Position numbers and translations under genes: made by a program
The notes under the pieces: model-generated
The model's input: the letters and a program-made list of their open reading frames with translations, nothing else
Told to the model about the DNA's origin: nothing
Databases searched by the model: none
Shown: positions 5,933 through 39,724 of the stretch, in pieces
How the letters are laid out: every line of letters starts with the position of its first letter
Numbering within the stretch: the first letter of the stretch is position 1
IMG/VR virus record: IMGVR_UViG_3300045988_132327
Span: 1 to 58,193 of that record
Direction: 5' to 3' (one strand)
From: a virus
Taxonomy: Duplodnaviria; Heunggongvirae; Uroviricota; Caudoviricetes
DNA: 58,193 nucleotides

Positions 5933-6329
5933 ATTTCAAAGAAATATTATTTTTCTGGCAATGTTATCTGCCTGTCATTTATCTCATGCATCGGTTATTG
6001 CTGCGGGAGCTGCGGCAACCGCTGTAATTAGCGCCTCAGCCGCCAGCGAGCATGAGCAACGTACTGCAATCAATGCATCTGCCAATACCACCACGGTATC
6101 AGTAACACAAGAAAAGCCGAATATCGGATTTGTTACTTGTGGCAAGCGATATGGTGAAATGGTTGGCTCTCTTGGTTGCGTAATGTGGCAAGACGACGAC
6201 CGAACAGAAATTCCGTGGAACTCATGGCCTGGCTACATTCTTGGTAAGAAGCTGCCCACCAGCTATGAAGTAAATGCTATTTCGTTCGACCAATATAACA
6301 GTGTTGCAACGGTCTATTTCTCTTATTAA
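5925..6329 (+). CDS. putative secreted protein
   Basis: 134 aa; N-terminal hydrophobic signal-like segment. Confidence 0.45.
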   Translation: MAKFQRNIIFLAMLSACHLSHASVIAAGAAATAVISASAASEHEQRTAINASANTTTVSVTQEKPNIGFVTCGKRYGEMVGSLGCVMWQDDDRTEIPWNSWPGYILGKKLPTSYEVNAISFDQYNSVATVYFSY

Positions 6330-6341
6330 CACGGAGTAATT

Positions 6342-6635
6342 ATGTGGCGCGGTAATAATCATGGTGGAAGCCAGATGATACTTACCGAATATCAGCTCGA
6401 CCACAAAACCAATAAATCACGCTCAGTATATTTGCTTCGGCACAATAGCCGCGTAAGGAATACAGTGCTGGAGCAAAATCTGACCGTTGAAATGGATAAT
6501 TCGGGGAACTTCAAGCCAACAATTTCGCTTGATGATTTTCCGCGTGGTTTAAGCGAAAGAGAAGCCATGCTGAAATTAGCAGAATGGCTTCAGAGGTTAA
6601 GTATTGTTATTGAAGATAACTGGAGTCAACCATAA
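6342..6635 (+). CDS. hypothetical protein
   Basis: 97-aa ORF in co-directional array. Confidence 0.35.
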   Translation: MWRGNNHGGSQMILTEYQLDHKTNKSRSVYLLRHNSRVRNTVLEQNLTVEMDNSGNFKPTISLDDFPRGLSEREAMLKLAEWLQRLSIVIEDNWSQP

Positions 6636-6943
6636 TGAAAAATAATAAATCTTTTGATTTTACCCCATTATTACATGCGGCTTGTGCCGTTTTAGCTCAG
6701 GTGATTATGGGCACATTAACTGGTAACTGGATTTATGGAGCAATAGCAGGGATCACGTTCTTTATTGCGCGCGAACACACCCAGGCTGAATACCGATGGA
6801 TAAACAAGTTCGGGAACGGTAAGCGCAGCAATATGCCCTGGTGGGGCGGTTTCGATCCGCGCGTATGGGATATGGCGAGCTTGCAGGATTTTACCGTCCC
6901 TACTGTCGCCTGCCTTTGGGTTTTGGTTTTTGTGTATCTATGA
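6635..6943 (+). CDS. small integral membrane protein
   Basis: 102 aa; at least two hydrophobic helices. Confidence 0.45.
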   Translation: MKNNKSFDFTPLLHAACAVLAQVIMGTLTGNWIYGAIAGITFFIAREHTQAEYRWINKFGNGKRSNMPWWGGFDPRVWDMASLQDFTVPTVACLWVLVFVYL

Positions 6944-7710
6944 TGGTGATCGATATGAGGATAACTAAAACTCGTTTATTGGACATTATCGCACGAATAG
7001 AAATGTATGGTCACGGTGCTGGATATACGGCAGATGAAGTATTGGCACTTGCCCAAATGGCTTTGGCGGCTTGCAAAGATGATAAAAAAATGAAGTTTAT
7101 CGACTTGTTAGTGAAGGAGCTGCCTAAGTGCGGCGGGTGGCCTTATGGAATGAGTTACTGTTACCTACCCAGTGTCAATTTAATGGCACCATGCGCGACT
7201 TTTGCTTTTGGCTCAGACCACAAAAAAGACACTTTCTTTGGGCGCAATTTTTGTTGTGAGATTGAGCTTCCAATTGGTGACCTTGATAGCGATGAATACC
7301 AGTCAGTTGTCACTCGCGAACAATACGAATCAGCTCTCATAGCGTCGCAGAAAGTCGAGTTCAATGGTGATGAACTTGAAAGTAAGACTTACAGGTTGGA
7401 TTTTGGGCAATGGCTGGAACAGCAACGCGGGAAAATCGATGTGGACTGTGGTTGTGTGTCCACTGAAACATTCATGCACTGGTTGCGGGTAGCTTATGAG
7501 GCTGGGAACCATCCGGTTCTTCCGGATAGTTCCCAACAAGCGCCCAGGAAAAGCGTAAAAACCACTCTGGAAAGAGGCTATCTTGAGGCCGCATTAAAGA
7601 TTAAGCCGGGCCATACGCTAGGCGTCATTGATGCCATGTTGGTTCATGAAATGGCTAAGGCTTTATTGCCGCTGGTGGCTGATAAAATTCCGAATAAGGC
7701 CGATATCTGA
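6940..7710 (+). CDS. hypothetical protein
   Basis: ORF 6841..7710 trimmed to internal ATG at 6940 overlapping upstream stop; followed by terminator. Confidence 0.4.
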   Translation: MMVIDMRITKTRLLDIIARIEMYGHGAGYTADEVLALAQMALAACKDDKKMKFIDLLVKELPKCGGWPYGMSYCYLPSVNLMAPCATFAFGSDHKKDTFFGRNFCCEIELPIGDLDSDEYQSVVTREQYESALIASQKVEFNGDELESKTYRLDFGQWLEQQRGKIDVDCGCVSTETFMHWLRVAYEAGNHPVLPDSSQQAPRKSVKTTLERGYLEAALKIKPGHTLGVIDAMLVHEMAKALLPLVADKIPNKADI

Positions 7711-7720
7711 TCACCATGCT

Positions 7721-7752
7721 AAAATCCCCTCAATTCACAGAGGGGATTTTTG
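7721..7752 (+). terminator. rho-independent terminator
   Basis: hairpin aaaatcccctc-loop-gaggggatttt followed by T-run, after 6940..7710. Confidence 0.6.
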
Positions 7753-8022
7753 TATATGTTGCATAGAGTTTTATGGAAAAGCGTTATTGTCGGCGCGATC
7801 TTGGCTATGTCTGGGTGTGCAATGGTGCAATACAACGACGGTGAAAAGGTAAGCATCCAGTCAGATGGCTGGTATGGGCTGGATAGTCTGCAAAAAACCG
7901 CAGATAAAGCCTGTCAGCAATATGGGAAGTCTAAAGCCGTATATCAGCATAGCGCGAACGCTAATCCCCATCTCGCGCCCGGTACGGGCGTTCAGAACAC
8001 CATTTGGAAATGCGAACCATAA
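7750..8022 (+). CDS. small lipoprotein
   Basis: 90 aa; signal peptide with lipobox-like AMSGC. Confidence 0.5.
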   Translation: MYMLHRVLWKSVIVGAILAMSGCAMVQYNDGEKVSIQSDGWYGLDSLQKTADKACQQYGKSKAVYQHSANANPHLAPGTGVQNTIWKCEP

Positions 8023-13861: not shown

Positions 13862-14012
13862 GAAACTATTTCACCTCTATATACAGATGACGCTACGCGA
13901 AAAATATAAAAATGACAGGGTAGCTATAAGTTAATTTTCAAAATACAAGCCTTTGATTCGAGGCACGTATTTTCAGTGATGTCAACACTGTTCATCTACA
14001 CATGATTATAGC

Positions 14013-14046
14013 CTAACTTTAAATAATGCCAATTATCTAAAGTTAG
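14013..14046. other. lox-like recombination site CTAACTTTAAATA-ATGCCAAT-TATCTAAAGTTAG (13-8-13)
   Basis: 13-bp inverted arms (12/13 complementary) around an asymmetric 8-bp spacer, same geometry as loxP; about 150 bp upstream of cre. Confidence 0.55.
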
Positions 14047-14053
14047 AAATTTA
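14039..14053 (+). promoter_or_regulatory. operator-like motif AAGTTAGAAATTTAG (weaker copy)
   Basis: overlaps right arm of lox-like site. Confidence 0.35.
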
Positions 14054-14217
14054 GGAATTTTTTTCCTTTCCGCGCAGATGGGCAATGCATTGCTGGTGTG
14101 GGCTTTAAGTTATGCCTGGCAGTTTTTAAGCAGAATTTTCTAAATTGGATGATAAAAAAATGCATCTTGATCCTTTACTCACCCTGTTATTCGGCATAGA
14201 TTTGTCATAGTAATTTT

Positions 14218-18694: not shown

Positions 18695-18709
18695 ATATTA
18701 GAAAATTAA
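18695..18709 (+). promoter_or_regulatory. operator-like motif ATATTAGAAAATTAA (weaker copy)
   Basis: intergenic, upstream region of lpa-like gene. Confidence 0.3.
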
Positions 18710-18725
18710 TTCCATTCATCTAACA

Positions 18726-35228: not shown

Positions 35229-35650
35229 CAGTGTGCCTCCGCAATTCCGGGATTGGTAATATTGCGATACCAAGGATTAGTGTTTGGTTGTGATGAAGTA
35301 GAGAAACGGCCAGTCAGGACGCCATGTTGATCAGGGATCAGAGAACGGGCTTCTTTTTCAGTTGCGGCAATTGCGAAGTGATCGCAGTGTTTTTGCAGGG
35401 AGTGGAAACGCCAGATAAATTCCGGGCGCGAGCAAGGATTGGCATTAACCATAGTTACGGCCTCATTCGTAGGTTTAACAACCTGCGCCCCGCTGCTAAA
35501 CGGGTGGCAGGACGTGACGGGGTTAGCAGACTGGCACGAATGAAACCAGCAGGCCGAAGCCTCCCCATCACGCCCCACCATAATTCGGGCGTAACGTGGT
35601 TTTACGGACACAAAAATACCGCAATATCGGATATCTGCGGTTGTCCGCAT
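35228..35650 (-). CDS. hypothetical Cys-rich protein
   Basis: 140-aa ORF translationally coupled to Rha-like gene. Confidence 0.4.
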   Translation of the reverse strand: MRTTADIRYCGIFVSVKPRYARIMVGRDGEASACWFHSCQSANPVTSCHPFSSGAQVVKPTNEAVTMVNANPCSRPEFIWRFHSLQKHCDHFAIAATEKEARSLIPDQHGVLTGRFSTSSQPNTNPWYRNITNPGIAEAH

Positions 35651-35798
35651 TCGTATTCAGGCTGCTAAACCCGGTCGCAGAATTTGCTACGACGACATGA
35701 ATATAAGCCTGAAAACATGGAAGATCAACTAAAAATTTCAGCAATGGATGACTTCAGTCGATGATGCAGATCATACATTCCGATTTAGAAACAGCAAA

Positions 35799-35813
35799 TT
35801 AATTTTCTAACAC
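35799..35813 (-). promoter_or_regulatory. operator-like motif GTGTTAGAAAATTAA (reverse strand)
   Basis: about 150 nt upstream of 35228..35650 start. Confidence 0.45.
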
Positions 35814-35866: not shown

Positions 35867-36829
35867 TCATCCCCTAAAGCCAGCCGGGATTGACCAATCC
35901 TCACGGTCAAATTCAGACCGATAGCCACGCTGTTTCATCAGGTCAAAGGCTTCACCAATGGTTGCACACCCCTGGGAGCCAGAATAATCCATTGAGAAAT
36001 CCAGGACACTGGATTGTTTAGGCTTATTCACTGCGGTAGCTGCACTACGTATCCATGCAAATTTTTTTGCCAGCTTTTCAGCGGTACGATACAGAGCCTG
36101 CCGTTTTGCGTGCCCCTCGTCTGAACGACGCTTTGCAGCTCTCGCTTTTGCCGCCGCCAGGCAGTGGTTGGTATGTTCTTCCCTGATTACTGGTTTTTTA
36201 TCCAGTAATCCATTATCCGCTTGGGAACTATCTGCTGGTGAAGCCTTTGGCTGAACCGCGCATGATCTTTCTCTTCTTTTGTCTATAGAGTGACTCTTAT
36301 TTTCTATTGGCTGTTCATTTTGAACATGGGGGGACTTGTTCAATTTGAACAGGGGGTTCCCAGTTTCAAAAAAATACCGAACCTTTGAAATCAACTGCTT
36401 AACCAGTTTTGTGGCGTTCGCAAATTTGATGCCCTGCTTACCCCCTATCTCCATTGCTACATGAATGAAGTGGAGAAATTGTGTTGTAAACCGGTATACG
36501 TTACACACCTGAGCATTGTTATTCGCTACCTGATGTTGCTTAACAAGCATTCCGCACTTCGTCGCTTCAGCAAATGCCCGGCGCACAGTAGAAATACTGC
36601 GTCCTGTAATCTCGGACATATCAGCATATGAGCGACGGATCATGTATTCATCGGTAGCTCCTGCCAGGTTGGCGAACTCGGCAATAATGGCGCTATGTGA
36701 AGGGGAAAGAAAACCGCTATGACGAGCAAAAAAACTCAACTGATGACCTTTGATTTTTTTGTGGTATTCAGTGTTGTTTTTATACTCAGAAGTGTTGAAA
36801 GTTACTGAAATTGAATTTAAAATATTCAC
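35867..36829 (-). CDS. putative RepL-like replication/regulatory protein
   Basis: 320 aa; winged-helix-like segment; internal tandem palindromes resemble an origin; assignment tentative. Confidence 0.4.
   Translation of the reverse strand: MNILNSISVTFNTSEYKNNTEYHKKIKGHQLSFFARHSGFLSPSHSAIIAEFANLAGATDEYMIRRSYADMSEITGRSISTVRRAFAEATKCGMLVKQHQVANNNAQVCNVYRFTTQFLHFIHVAMEIGGKQGIKFANATKLVKQLISKVRYFFETGNPLFKLNKSPHVQNEQPIENKSHSIDKRRERSCAVQPKASPADSSQADNGLLDKKPVIREEHTNHCLAAAKARAAKRRSDEGHAKRQALYRTAEKLAKKFAWIRSAATAVNKPKQSSVLDFSMDYSGSQGCATIGEAFDLMKQRGYRSEFDREDWSIPAGFRG
36311..36355. repeat. two tandem 15-bp palindromes TGTTCAnTTTGAACA each followed by G5, inside the RepL-like ORF
   Basis: 36311..36325 and 36336..36350, 25-bp periodicity. 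Confidence 0.6.
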
Positions 36830-36891
36830 CAGATAGTTCCGTGAAAAAATCTATCTACCGTATAAATCTATGCCAGTGGATTTATACACCC

Positions 36892-36925
36892 AAAAGCCGC
36901 TTCTCAGCGGCTTTTGCTTTTTTTG
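36892..36925. terminator. hairpin terminator, stronger on plus strand
   Basis: aaaagccgc-ttctca-gcggctttt then gcTTTTTTTgg on plus strand; only a short U-run on minus. Confidence 0.5.
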
Positions 36926-37001
36926 GCAATCGCTACCGGAGCAGTGACCGCGATCCTACTCGATCACATCGGACAGGATCAACAGTGTATATAAATACAC
37001 T

Positions 37002-37016
37002 ATGTTAGAAATTTAA
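37002..37016 (+). promoter_or_regulatory. operator-like motif ATGTTAGAAATTTAA
   Basis: intergenic between pro-like and RepL-like genes. Confidence 0.45.
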
Positions 37017-37029
37017 CTTCATTCAGCGG

Positions 37030-38028
37030 TTATGCCCGTCGCGAAACGAAGAGTAATGGGGTAGTATTTTTGCTCTCCTTCGGCGATAACTCCGGCTCTT
37101 TCTTGCCTGATATCGGCAAGCCATAAGTCGCATTTGCCCCAAGAGATTCAAGCATCGCAGCCACTATGCGGGCATCATCTTCAGACTGCATACGGCAGAG
37201 CGCCCGGCGCTGTTCTGCGCTGATAAAAACAGGCATTTCCTGGATAGCTTCACGCAAAATCCGGCGGCATTGCTTTGCATTTTCCCCCTGGCTTTCCATC
37301 ATCGCTGTTTGAGCGCGCAGCTTATCTCGAAGCTGTATGTTTTCCACTTCAAGGAGCATCAATTCTGATTCCAGGGCTTCACGATGTGCAGATTCGAGCA
37401 TGGCTTGCTGATTTTTCATTGCTGAAAAGTGGTGAACCAGATCCGTAGCAGCGTTATCGGTAAAACCTTGTTCGATAAGTGCTGCATGAATAGCCGCATC
37501 GCGCTCTTCTGCTGATTCAAGCATCAGGCTTTTCTTGTCGAGGCTGATATAGTTAGGCACAGTTACGTAATCAAAGCCGTGGAAAGACTTTACCAGGGAT
37601 ACCGATGAATCTGGACCAGATGTAGCCCACGACCAACCACCAGCACCAGAATTAATCATGCCCTGAACAATACGCCCGGTGTCTGTATCCAGTATTTCCT
37701 GCGTATGAGTAACAATGCCGTTGTCGTCAATCGAAATGTCGATAGTCCTGTTTGACGGCACGTTCTCCAATACAACAGGCTTCCCATCTACCATCACAAC
37801 AGAGACTTCCGGCAAGTTCAGGCTTTTCGTTTTGTTATAGTGCATCGCCCGGCGACCATGACCGTAATAACCATACATCTCACCCAGCGCGATACGCTCT
37901 TTTGTTTCTGGCGAGTTGAATGTGTCTCGTACCGACTGAATGACGTAATTTCGGTTGTTCTGCGGTGTGTGTTTGCGGATTTTCTCTACCAGGGAGAAGC
38001 GATCCGTAACAGTATTCAGTGATTGCAT
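37030..38028 (-). CDS. putative prohead protease/scaffold (Pro-like)
   Basis: 332 aa, adjacent to putative portal; C-terminal coiled coil; positional. Confidence 0.4.
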   Translation of the reverse strand: MQSLNTVTDRFSLVEKIRKHTPQNNRNYVIQSVRDTFNSPETKERIALGEMYGYYGHGRRAMHYNKTKSLNLPEVSVVMVDGKPVVLENVPSNRTIDISIDDNGIVTHTQEILDTDTGRIVQGMINSGAGGWSWATSGPDSSVSLVKSFHGFDYVTVPNYISLDKKSLMLESAEERDAAIHAALIEQGFTDNAATDLVHHFSAMKNQQAMLESAHREALESELMLLEVENIQLRDKLRAQTAMMESQGENAKQCRRILREAIQEMPVFISAEQRRALCRMQSEDDARIVAAMLESLGANATYGLPISGKKEPELSPKESKNTTPLLFVSRRA

Positions 38029-38041
38029 TATTTCCCTCCGG

Positions 38042-39724
38042 TTAATTGCTCATCACAAATTTTGCAAAGTTTATTAACTGTTCTGGCGTCCAGTTTTCCG
38101 GATCGTCACCGGACGACAACGGCGCGGATTCGTACATACCATGCTCGTTGTTTTGCTCTGATTCATTCGCCTTAAACTCTTTGATCATGGTGTTGAGAGT
38201 GTCATCGTCGATGTGCAACTGCTCAGTGAACAGATAACGCATAAACGCGTCGCTACCAGCCAGTTTCGGGTTGTTCTGGATCTGGTCCATAATTTGGGAG
38301 ATGACAGCAACAAAGTTGGCGCGTGCATCCAGTTCTCGGTTTTCCTCTTCCTGGATAGCTGTGTTCATTGAGTTGAATTGCACGTCATAAGGGCGGTTTG
38401 TTTCGGTGTAAACCTTGCCGTATTTATAAGCGAGGTGAATGTCCAGAAGCCGATAAATAGTTCGCTGGGCGGCCTGTCTGATCCAGTTCGCACGCAATGC
38501 AGCCTGGATAGCAGTTTGCTGCCAGCCGCCTTCTCCAAGCCCTCCGCTCATCTGATCAGCCCAGCCAAGCATTGTTGCGTCAATGCCGAGGCTTGCAGCA
38601 AGCTGCCGGAGGTGAAACATAACGTCTTCGATACCACTGATATCTGCGGGTATGGATTGCGTATCAATGGTGATGCCGTTCTTCCCGTCTCCCATAACAG
38701 GTATCAGATGGTTAAGCACAGTCGGAATAGCGTTGGCATTAATCGACCTTTGCGCCACCAGGTCACTATGACGCTTCAATGCCTGGCTGACGCCACGCGT
38801 ATAGTTCGCCGCATTAACCGGGTCCAGTGTGTTCGTCGTAAGAGCAATCAGGCGGTCAATTTTGGCTGCATTATTTCGCGTTGATTTCAGCGCGGCGAGC
38901 GAAGCACATAAATTAAGGTAAGGTTCATAGCTGTATTCCAGGAATGAAGTTCCGTAATTCTGCGTCTCCATTAACGGCTTATCAGCCTGATCACTTAACA
39001 GTGAGTACCCTTTTGTGCCGTAGCTAACCGGAATAACTTTATGCTGTGGCGTCCAATAGGGATTTTTCATGGAAACCAGATTCCACGGTTCGGTTATTAC
39101 TCTGCGCAAACTATGCGTATCCAGAATGTAATCACCACTGAAACCTACCAGCTGGCTACCACGATAAAACTCCTGGACGAAGTGTGGCAGAGTGTAATAA
39201 CTGGACTCAATGCCTGTTATCCCCCTGCCCTGTTCAGCATAAGGTCGGACATAAGACACCCCAAAGATCGCCATAATCATGGCCCATGAAGGAAGTCCGT
39301 CATTAATCATCGTCCCCAAATCAGCGGTTAACTCTTCACATCTACTTACTGCCTCGGCATCGGAACCATCCTTTGGCGAAAGGATGAATGCTTGTCCGGT
39401 TTTTTTTGAAGGCGCAAGCGCATGTGCAATGTGAATATTTAAAGCCGTCGAGATAGTCGGGCTTTTAGCCATCGTTTCCAGGATGTTGTACTTTTGCAGG
39501 CGGTCGCCGGGCAGTTCTGCCGAAATTGATACTGTATCTGCCGCGCTTGTCATGCCATCGCTATTGCCACCCAGTATCCCCGGACGTAAAGCGGACAGAC
39601 CAGAACGCGCAACGACACTATGACCGCTCGTAAAAACGACCGGATCGGCAGGCGTGACATCGCCACTGTTGAAGGCTTTCTTCAATGCCGACAGAAAGCC
39701 TTTGTTTTTGTCTTTCGTTGCCAT
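38042..39724 (-). CDS. putative portal protein (Prt-like)
   Basis: 560 aa; positional analogy to P1 prt-pro pair; no motif confirmation. Confidence 0.45.
   Translation of the reverse strand: MATKDKNKGFLSALKKAFNSGDVTPADPVVFTSGHSVVARSGLSALRPGILGGNSDGMTSAADTVSISAELPGDRLQKYNILETMAKSPTISTALNIHIAHALAPSKKTGQAFILSPKDGSDAEAVSRCEELTADLGTMINDGLPSWAMIMAIFGVSYVRPYAEQGRGITGIESSYYTLPHFVQEFYRGSQLVGFSGDYILDTHSLRRVITEPWNLVSMKNPYWTPQHKVIPVSYGTKGYSLLSDQADKPLMETQNYGTSFLEYSYEPYLNLCASLAALKSTRNNAAKIDRLIALTTNTLDPVNAANYTRGVSQALKRHSDLVAQRSINANAIPTVLNHLIPVMGDGKNGITIDTQSIPADISGIEDVMFHLRQLAASLGIDATMLGWADQMSGGLGEGGWQQTAIQAALRANWIRQAAQRTIYRLLDIHLAYKYGKVYTETNRPYDVQFNSMNTAIQEEENRELDARANFVAVISQIMDQIQNNPKLAGSDAFMRYLFTEQLHIDDDTLNTMIKEFKANESEQNNEHGMYESAPLSSGDDPENWTPEQLINFAKFVMSN

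Follow-up and report, generated by a model that had tools for sequence, protein, structure and literature searches.

A predicted cis-antisense RNA facing the leader of the lytic replication gene repL in D6-type phage-plasmids

Introduction

The plasmid copy-number systems CopA/CopT (R1), RNAI (IncB/IncIalpha) and RNAI/II (pT181, pIP501) are based on short, constitutive and structured cis-antisense RNAs, which are complementary to the leader of the replication-initiator mRNA and offer an accessible loop for the first contact. In phage P1, the lytic replicon also faces an antisense promoter. In the P1 record (GenBank AF234172), PaskilA (formerly P53as) is annotated inside kilA (the gene that opens the C1-controlled kilA-repL operon), with its -10 hexamer at 49923-28, its -35 hexamer at 49946-51 and an antisense transcription start 19 nt inside the gene. 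We analyse here a locus of similar layout, the 200-bp gap (positions 36830-37029) between the head protease gene pro and a repL-like lytic replication initiator gene, in a 58,193-nt stretch of DNA from a virus of the class Caudoviricetes (IMG/VR record IMGVR_UViG_3300045988_132327; the whole stretch is hereafter referred to as the window). Between positions 35800 and 38100, the window shares 98.4% identity with a P1-like phage-plasmid, Escherichia phage D6. We consider it probable that the gap encodes a cis-antisense RNA belonging to a sense/antisense control module that would restrain RepL, the presumed target, which is encoded on the minus strand (35867-36829, 320 aa).

Results

A predicted promoter and a terminator on the plus strand

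The gap contains an intrinsic terminator on the plus strand (36891-36924), with a perfect 11-bp stem (CAAAAGCCGCT/AGCGGCTTTTG, 36891-36901 with 36906-36916) including six GC pairs, the loop TCTC, a single C and a run of seven T (36918-24). The GC-rich stem, short loop and immediate U-tract on this strand are those of a rho-independent terminator. A strict scan of both strands of the window (8 bp or more of perfect stem, three or more GC pairs and six or more T within the next 9 nt) retrieved only three hairpins, this one being alone on the plus strand, and the same scan applied to 30 shuffled sequences gave 0-1 matches each, about 0.1 on average. An original prediction, made from the sequence of the window, had held that the T-run followed the hairpin on the plus strand only and that no plus-strand gene preceded it. 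Both statements were confirmed: on the minus strand, GGGTGTAT comes after the stem and the scan called no terminator, and the sole plus-strand open reading frame (ORF) is one of 65 aa with a TTG start (36811-37008).

About 70 nt upstream of the terminator, the promoter scan identified a sigma-70 promoter on the plus strand (TTGAAA-17-TAAAAT, 36795-36823; hereafter referred to as P_as), with a 10/12 match and ideal spacing. P_as lies within codons 3-12 of repL and is directed away from this gene; its -35 hexamer (36795-36800) covers codons 10-12 (T-F-N) and its -10 hexamer (36818-36823) codons 3-4 (I-L). Only four sites in the window score at least 10/12 when both strands are counted, and chance alone would place about 0.005 such sites in the 150 nt preceding the terminator. 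The operator-like motif described below has no copy over P_as, which suggests that the RNA would be made constitutively.

Together, P_as and the terminator predict a cis-antisense RNA of ~95 nt on the plus strand (36830-36924), the 5' end of which would lie 7 nt past the -10 hexamer and the 3' end in the T-run. This RNA would begin 1 nt from the repL start codon (36827-36829) and is fully complementary to the repL 5' leader. The translation start region of repL (36827-36840, minus strand) consists of a GTG start codon (36829-36827), replaced by ATG in several relatives, and a weak Shine-Dalgarno sequence, GGAA (36840-36837).

The hairpin might instead act mainly on the minus strand, as a terminator or insulator against read-through from the late operon prt-pro or as an attenuator in the repL leader, with the plus-strand signals being incidental. 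We regard this explanation as unlikely. An invariant AAAA 5' of the stem places UUUU at the end of the hairpin in the minus-strand RNA, so some termination is possible, no other minus-strand terminator was called between the pro stop codon and repL, and the equivalent hairpin of P1 directly follows the ant stop codon on the sense strand. Nevertheless, these four U's are the only ones, they all lie within the extended stem and are followed by GGGUG in the RNA, and the hairpin is located downstream of the conserved block containing the operator-like motif and the candidate sense promoters rather than between pro and that block. A minus-strand function would also leave unexplained the 10/12 promoter, its pattern of conservation and the strand bias of the G·U pairs described below.

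Fold of the predicted RNA

The 96-nt sequence folds into three hairpins with a minimum free energy (MFE) of -33.2 kcal/mol, against a mean of -13.7 for shuffled sequences (z = -7.4), and none of 200 shuffles was as stable. Hairpin 1 (36831-36856) has a 6-bp stem, AGAUAG/CUAUCU, and a 14-nt loop that opens with an anti-Shine-Dalgarno sequence, UUCC (36837-36840), complementary to the GGAA of repL and with an unpaired probability of 0.80-1.0 in the window RNA. Hairpin 2 (36860-36887) has a 12-bp stem and the loop GCCA; it includes two G·U pairs that exist on the plus strand only, the other strand having A·C mismatches at these positions. The third hairpin is that of the terminator.

A covariance model of the predicted RNA found a single copy in the window (122.6 bits). 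No match to the predicted RNA was obtained in Rfam 15, the best overlaps being with rnk_pseudo (21.6 bits, E = 1.5) and STnc50 (20.6 bits, E = 3.6), both far below their gathering thresholds, and a search of the whole window at the gathering thresholds returned only tRNAs, C4 and c4-a1b1. Targets in trans were also considered and rejected: complementary 11-mers elsewhere in the window occurred at chance level (4 versus about 2.4 expected), and the duplex energy of a candidate site at 14193, upstream of c1, was no better than that of 72% of random windows.

Conservation in two clades

Searches with RepL in genomes, viral contigs and metagenomes yielded two clades only, the D6 type and a divergent type (hereafter referred to as the divergent clade) consisting of plasmids of Shigella dysenteriae and Escherichia fergusonii, whose RepL is 65% identical to that of the D6 type at the protein level and 70% at the nucleotide level. 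The hexamers of P_as are unchanged in all relatives. There is no variable site in them among the D6-type loci, and they are identical at 12/12 positions in the divergent clade (p about 0.013 at the base rate of the gene, in which third codon positions are 50% identical between clades). The 17-bp spacer of P_as is less constrained, with 6/17 positions differing in the divergent clade and three varying within the D6 type. When the promoter and terminator scans were run on the divergent clade, the same 10/12 promoter and a plus-strand terminator were called independently.

Variation within the D6 type was analysed in 67 loci, corresponding to 21 distinct sequences. Variable sites were found at 3/58 stem positions of the RNA, as against 9/37 unpaired positions (Fisher p = 0.01). 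In hairpin 1, the variation within the clade sits in the loop; in hairpin 2, the loop is the most variable spot and three sequences have U-A in place of U·G at one pair. The core of hairpin 2, ATAAATC/GATTTAT, is unchanged in both clades. In the divergent clade, this core and the terminator stem are kept and the 5' part is replaced, with a predicted RNA of about 139 nt and four hairpins. The Shine-Dalgarno sequence is AAGGA/AAGG at the same position in this clade, and the anti-Shine-Dalgarno sequence is part of a single-stranded 5' tail, with an unpaired probability of 0.57-1.0 that drops below 0.96 at one position only. In all three lineages, the anti-Shine-Dalgarno sequence is mostly open despite their differing 5' structures.

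The strand bias is most pronounced in the divergent clade, where the fold of the plus strand is 9-13 kcal/mol more stable than that of the minus strand, because of G·U pairs. The MFE values are -51.1 (z = -7.5) for the plus strand versus -42.0 (z = -4.5) for the minus strand in S. dysenteriae, and -51.2 (z = -8.5) versus -38.2 (z = -3.2) in E. fergusonii. One hairpin differs between these plasmids by two substitutions, G·U to A-U and U-A to U·G, which retain pairing on the plus strand only.

These comparisons bear on another explanation, according to which the functional structure is the leader of the repL mRNA itself, which would affect translation or stability in cis, for instance by hiding the weak Shine-Dalgarno sequence or leaving it exposed, a plus-strand RNA being absent or irrelevant. 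The minus-strand RNA of the window does fold well above background (z = -5.3), and the Shine-Dalgarno sequence is in a hairpin loop on this strand as well. However, the plus strand folds better in every lineage, the substitutions between lineages preserve pairing on the plus strand only, and a cis-acting leader would require neither a plus-strand T-run nor a plus-strand promoter. We consider this explanation improbable, slightly more so than a function as a minus-strand terminator.

The sense promoter region and the operator-like motif

Two candidate promoters for repL were identified on the minus strand between the terminator and pro. The best conserved, P_B (36953-36982), consists of TTGATC (36982-36977), an 18-bp spacer and TAGGAT (36958-36953). 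Its 8/12 match to the consensus equals that of the annotated PkilA of P1 (TGGATC-17-TCTAAT). The hexamers of P_B are invariant or nearly so in both clades and its spacer length is fixed, with 10/18 spacer positions varying; transcription from P_B would start near 36945. P_A (36988-37016; TTAAAT-17-TATATA, 7/12) is a weak alternative, with a -35 hexamer overlapping the operator-like motif and hexamers that vary among relatives, its conservation being below that of P_B; its assignment as a repL promoter is highly tentative. A repL leader starting from either P_A or P_B would include the whole of the antisense RNA. Three GATC (Dam) sites (36952, 36962 and 36977) form a cluster over the -10 hexamer, spacer and -35 hexamer of P_B (36952-36980), a density of three in 29 bp versus a background of 0.36 per 100 bp, and one or two of the three are retained in the divergent clade. 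Between the operator-like motif and P_B, an A/T-rich palindrome, GTGTATATAAATACAC (36985-37000), contains the -10 hexamer of P_A; it is conserved in most relatives, its symmetry being broken in one group of them (L004).

The operator-like motif ATGTTAGAAATTTAA (37002-37016, plus strand), a presumed D6-type C1 repressor site, is genuine, as originally predicted: 11 copies with up to three mismatches are present in the window, versus 2.5 expected, and none of 100 shuffles reached 11. The distance of 25 bp initially given between the motif and the stop codon of the neighbouring gene was wrong, the pro stop codon (37030-37032) being 13 nt away from the end of the motif. The copies (at 866, 12817, 14040, 14218, 18695, 23448, 23604, 24853, 25950, 35799 and 37002) are mostly intergenic, lying upstream of c1 (two), lpa, c4, repL and pmgS, and the consensus of the 11 sites is (A/G)TGTTAGAAA(A/T)(T/C)TAA. 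The copy at 37002-37016 is conserved in both clades. In the operator arrangement of P1, an asymmetric motif of about 15-17 bp recurs in many intergenic regions, preceding c1, c4, lpa and the lytic replicon, and we infer that the motif is a D6-type C1 operator because its copies precede genes that C1 controls in P1. The P1 C1 operator consensus itself, ATTGCTCTAATAAATTT, is absent from the window even when three mismatches are allowed. The C1-like protein of the window is only distantly related to P1 C1 (NCBIfam E = 3.8e-5, well short of the cut-off), and such a distant C1 protein fits a changed operator sequence.

The motif was rejected as a control element of the small RNA, because it lies 77 bp past the RNA 3' end and has no copy over P_as. 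Its position, with P_B about 20 bp away, assigns it to the minus-strand repL promoter region. The part of the original prediction that proposed a short transcript of the plus strand, antisense to the repL leader, is supported at the sequence level by the promoter, the fold, the conservation and the strand bias, whereas the operator, which had been included in the same unit, does not belong to it.

Two other copies of the motif have distinctive surroundings. Upstream of lpa (18695-18733), the site at 18695-18709 (plus strand) is accompanied, about 10 bp away, by an inverted TGTTAGA, an arrangement resembling a bivalent operator. Between cre and c1, the operator-like site at 14040-14054 adjoins the best sigma-70 match of the window (TTGGCA-16-TATAAT, 11/12, about 14004-14032, minus strand), which probably represents a promoter directed toward cre and under repressor control. 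The operator-like motif next to repL also marks, at its outer edge, a breakpoint in similarity: in pRHBSTW-00605_3 (E. marmotae) and several other plasmids, the similarity to the window ends exactly there, at 37016/37017, which suggests a mosaic recombination boundary between the head-gene module containing pro and the repL control module.

The inverted repeats of the gap could be protein-binding sites at the DNA level, for RepL autoregulation or host factors or as part of an origin, rather than RNA elements. A/T-rich inverted repeats with the common core GTATAAAT are found at 36860, 36879 and 36985, there is one DnaA-box-like sequence with an 8/9 match (TTATACACC at 36883), and the GATC cluster is nearby. 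Against this, the resemblance between hairpin 2 and the palindrome is lost in the divergent clade, the G·U asymmetry would be meaningless in double-stranded DNA, and the lytic origin of P1 lies inside repL, not upstream of it; we judge this explanation very improbable. Finally, the 65-aa ORF (36811-37008) does exist, but a small protein encoded by it or by a shorter ORF within the RNA can be dismissed almost entirely, as the ORF is not conserved, its TTG start lies upstream of the predicted transcription start, with which it is incompatible, it passes through the terminator, its frame is broken by indels, amounting to net -2 in the L004 group and to an insertion of 43 nt in the divergent clade, and the internal AUG at 36870 lacks both a Shine-Dalgarno sequence and a counterpart in the divergent clade.

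Points weighing against an antisense RNA

Several observations count against the antisense RNA and were weighed with the evidence above. The RNA is predicted from sequence signals, and the repL promoter facing it is represented by two candidates, both of them weak matches. The hexamers of P_as overlap conserved RepL residues (ILNS and TFN), and protein constraint could contribute to their conservation. In the window itself, the folding advantage of the plus strand over the minus strand amounts to just 1.2 kcal/mol. A plain MAFFT alignment gave no covariation, the stems of hairpin 2 and of the terminator being essentially invariant. An alignment guided by the covariance model did reveal seven pairs with two-sided changes (none of 500 shuffles reached seven, and slid controls gave at most three), but a single divergent lineage accounts for all of these changes, and the alignment had itself been fitted to the model. 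We therefore treat the covariation as supportive only. The homology of hairpin 1 between the clades is also uncertain.

Comparison with P1 and other described systems

The promoter and terminator scans, when applied to P1, recovered a 10/12 promoter at PaskilA and, about 180 nt downstream, a terminator with a 13-bp stem and a T-run on the antisense strand. This distance agrees with the length of the P1 antisense RNA, which is said to be 180 bases and was reportedly described by Heinrich et al. in 1995 (NAR 23:1468). The analogy with P1 made in the original prediction is supported, the P1 record having an antisense promoter and start in the equivalent position. In both systems, the promoter lies inside the 5' coding end of the first repressor-controlled gene of the lytic replicon and fires backwards, has no C1 operator, and is followed by an intrinsic terminator on the antisense strand that delimits a short RNA. 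This RNA covers the ribosome-binding region of that first gene, the D6-type start being a predicted one. Likewise, the GATC cluster at the sense promoter has a counterpart in the three Dam sites recorded at the kilA promoter of P1.

The two systems nevertheless differ in several respects. The P1 antisense RNA has reportedly been demonstrated experimentally, whereas the D6-type RNA is known from sequence prediction. No sequence homology was found between them (local alignment score of 17 versus a shuffle mean of 17.5), and no structural homology, the covariance model of the D6-type RNA having no match in the P1 locus. The D6-type RNA is about 95 nt long versus about 180 nt in P1 and, as D6-type elements have no kilA, its target would be repL itself. 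The P1 antisense transcript crosses P53 and Op53 and stops upstream of both, whereas the D6-type RNA ends in the leader, at 36924, 28-60 bp short of the candidate promoters, and does not cross the operator. Promoter occlusion is unlikely because the transcript ends inside the leader, and the RNA itself, through pairing at the ribosome-binding site, is the likelier effector. We conclude that the predicted RNA is most likely a functional analogue, and not a homologue, of the P1 P53as RNA.

The plasmid antisense RNAs set the steady-state copy number, whereas the D6-type RNA faces a repressor-controlled lytic initiator. No leader peptide or pseudoknot of the kind found in R1 and IncB, and no antisense-induced attenuator as in pT181, is evident at the D6-type locus, and the Rfam search revealed no homology to the copy-number RNAs. 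The C4 RNA of the P1/P7 immI region (RF01695) resembles the predicted RNA in being a phage-plasmid regulatory RNA in the same neighbourhood. It differs in being processed from the same strand as its target and in acting at separate a/b sites, whereas the D6-type RNA is encoded on the opposite strand, is fully complementary to its target and has no Rfam match.

Distribution and genomic context

The repL gap was found in 118 plasmids, from E. coli, Salmonella and Shigella. Of 5426 complete E. coli genomes, 97 (about 1.8%) carry it, on a plasmid in every case. The RepL-based scan of genome contigs identified no more distant relatives, and those of viral and metagenome contigs returned the same two clades and nothing further. 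Comparison with plasmids by tblastn separated D6-type records (at least 90% identity), nine intermediate records and P1-type records (about 27%), with no other group. Nine environmental contigs and the locus L077, which matched the DNA pattern of hairpin 2 and the terminator, were discarded as chance matches in unrelated contexts. The gap carries no annotation, RNA included, in the D6 GenBank record or in the one RefSeq plasmid record checked. Full-text literature searches, which did not cover the D6 genome paper (Gilcrease & Casjens 2018), retrieved no description of an antisense RNA for D6-like elements.

The RepL of the window is 97% identical to D6 orf20, annotated as "lytic replication protein", and 27% identical to the RepL of P1, P7 and relatives (92% coverage, E about 1e-15 to 1e-16, tblastn); Pfam gave only a weak, sub-threshold match to HTH_36. 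On these protein comparisons, it is a distant member of the P1 RepL group. Upstream of repL, pro (37030-38028) and the portal gene (38042-39724) are both on the minus strand. Downstream, a C4 antisense RNA and its a1/b1 target sites (35500-35706, minus strand) are followed by icd and the antirepressor gene. The C4 copy (RF01695, 35500-35585) scored 71.9 bits and the a1/b1 element (RF03163) 52.2 bits; both are on the repL strand, directly downstream of this gene, and there is no RNA annotation at their position in the single RefSeq record examined. With repL upstream of c4-icd-ant, the gene order is reversed with respect to P1, in which c4-icd-ant precedes kilA-repL. No terminator was called between repL and the C4/a1b1 element, and repL transcription may run on into the immunity operon. 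In the divergent clade (loci L002 and L003, from the E. fergusonii and S. dysenteriae plasmids; 100-1630), a TIGR02594 gene (peptidoglycan-hydrolase-like) directly follows repL and neither icd nor the antirepressor gene is adjacent to it, implying that an immI-like region is elsewhere or absent.

The window and D6 also differ in their tRNA genes. ARAGORN identified four tRNA genes on the minus strand of the window (20147-22380), as opposed to three on the plus strand in the D6 record (6084-7850). The tRNA-Met gene (window 20147-20222; D6 6084-6159) is missing from the D6 annotation, and tRNA-Arg(tct) in the window (22304-22380) has tRNA-Asn(gtt) as its D6 counterpart.

Discussion

The arrangement described here suggests how a sense/antisense module could act on repL. 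P_as, located in the first dozen codons of repL and lacking the operator motif, would fire away from the gene, and its transcript would be halted after about 95 nt by the terminator at 36891-36924. The repL mRNA would have to begin upstream, in the conserved promoter/operator block (36953-37016), and the small RNA would therefore be perfectly complementary to nearly the whole of the repL leader. In a lysogen, the RNA would accumulate and pair with leaky repL transcripts, and this pairing would block ribosome binding and probably cause the duplex to be cleaved. Transcriptional interference may contribute as well, through RNA polymerases that converge within the 95-bp overlap. Once the C1-type repressor is lost, repL transcription would exceed the supply of antisense RNA and replication would fire, the antisense RNA setting the threshold for lytic replication.

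A variant of this model can be envisaged in which P_B escapes silencing by the C1-type repressor. In lysogens, the main brake on RepL would then consist of the antisense RNA and of partial termination of sense transcription at the shared bidirectional hairpin, and firing of the lytic replicon would be coupled to the methylation or replication state rather than to loss of the repressor alone. We consider this variant doubtful, about as much so as a mainly minus-strand role for the hairpin; if P_B did prove independent of the repressor, the locus would constitute an RNA threshold switch for lytic replication in a phage-plasmid, without repressor control.

The preferred model, an antisense RNA acting in addition to the repressor, would define a 95-nt element for probing how D6-type elements escape runaway replication, and the predicted RNA is the kind of feature that annotation pipelines overlook. 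If the RNA is real, antisense control of the lytic initiator would have been kept or reinvented in two phage-plasmid lineages, the D6 type and P1, the RepL proteins of which are 27% identical and the regulatory DNA of which is unrelated. Such a recurrence would speak against a repressor alone sufficing to silence the lytic replicon in a plasmid prophage.

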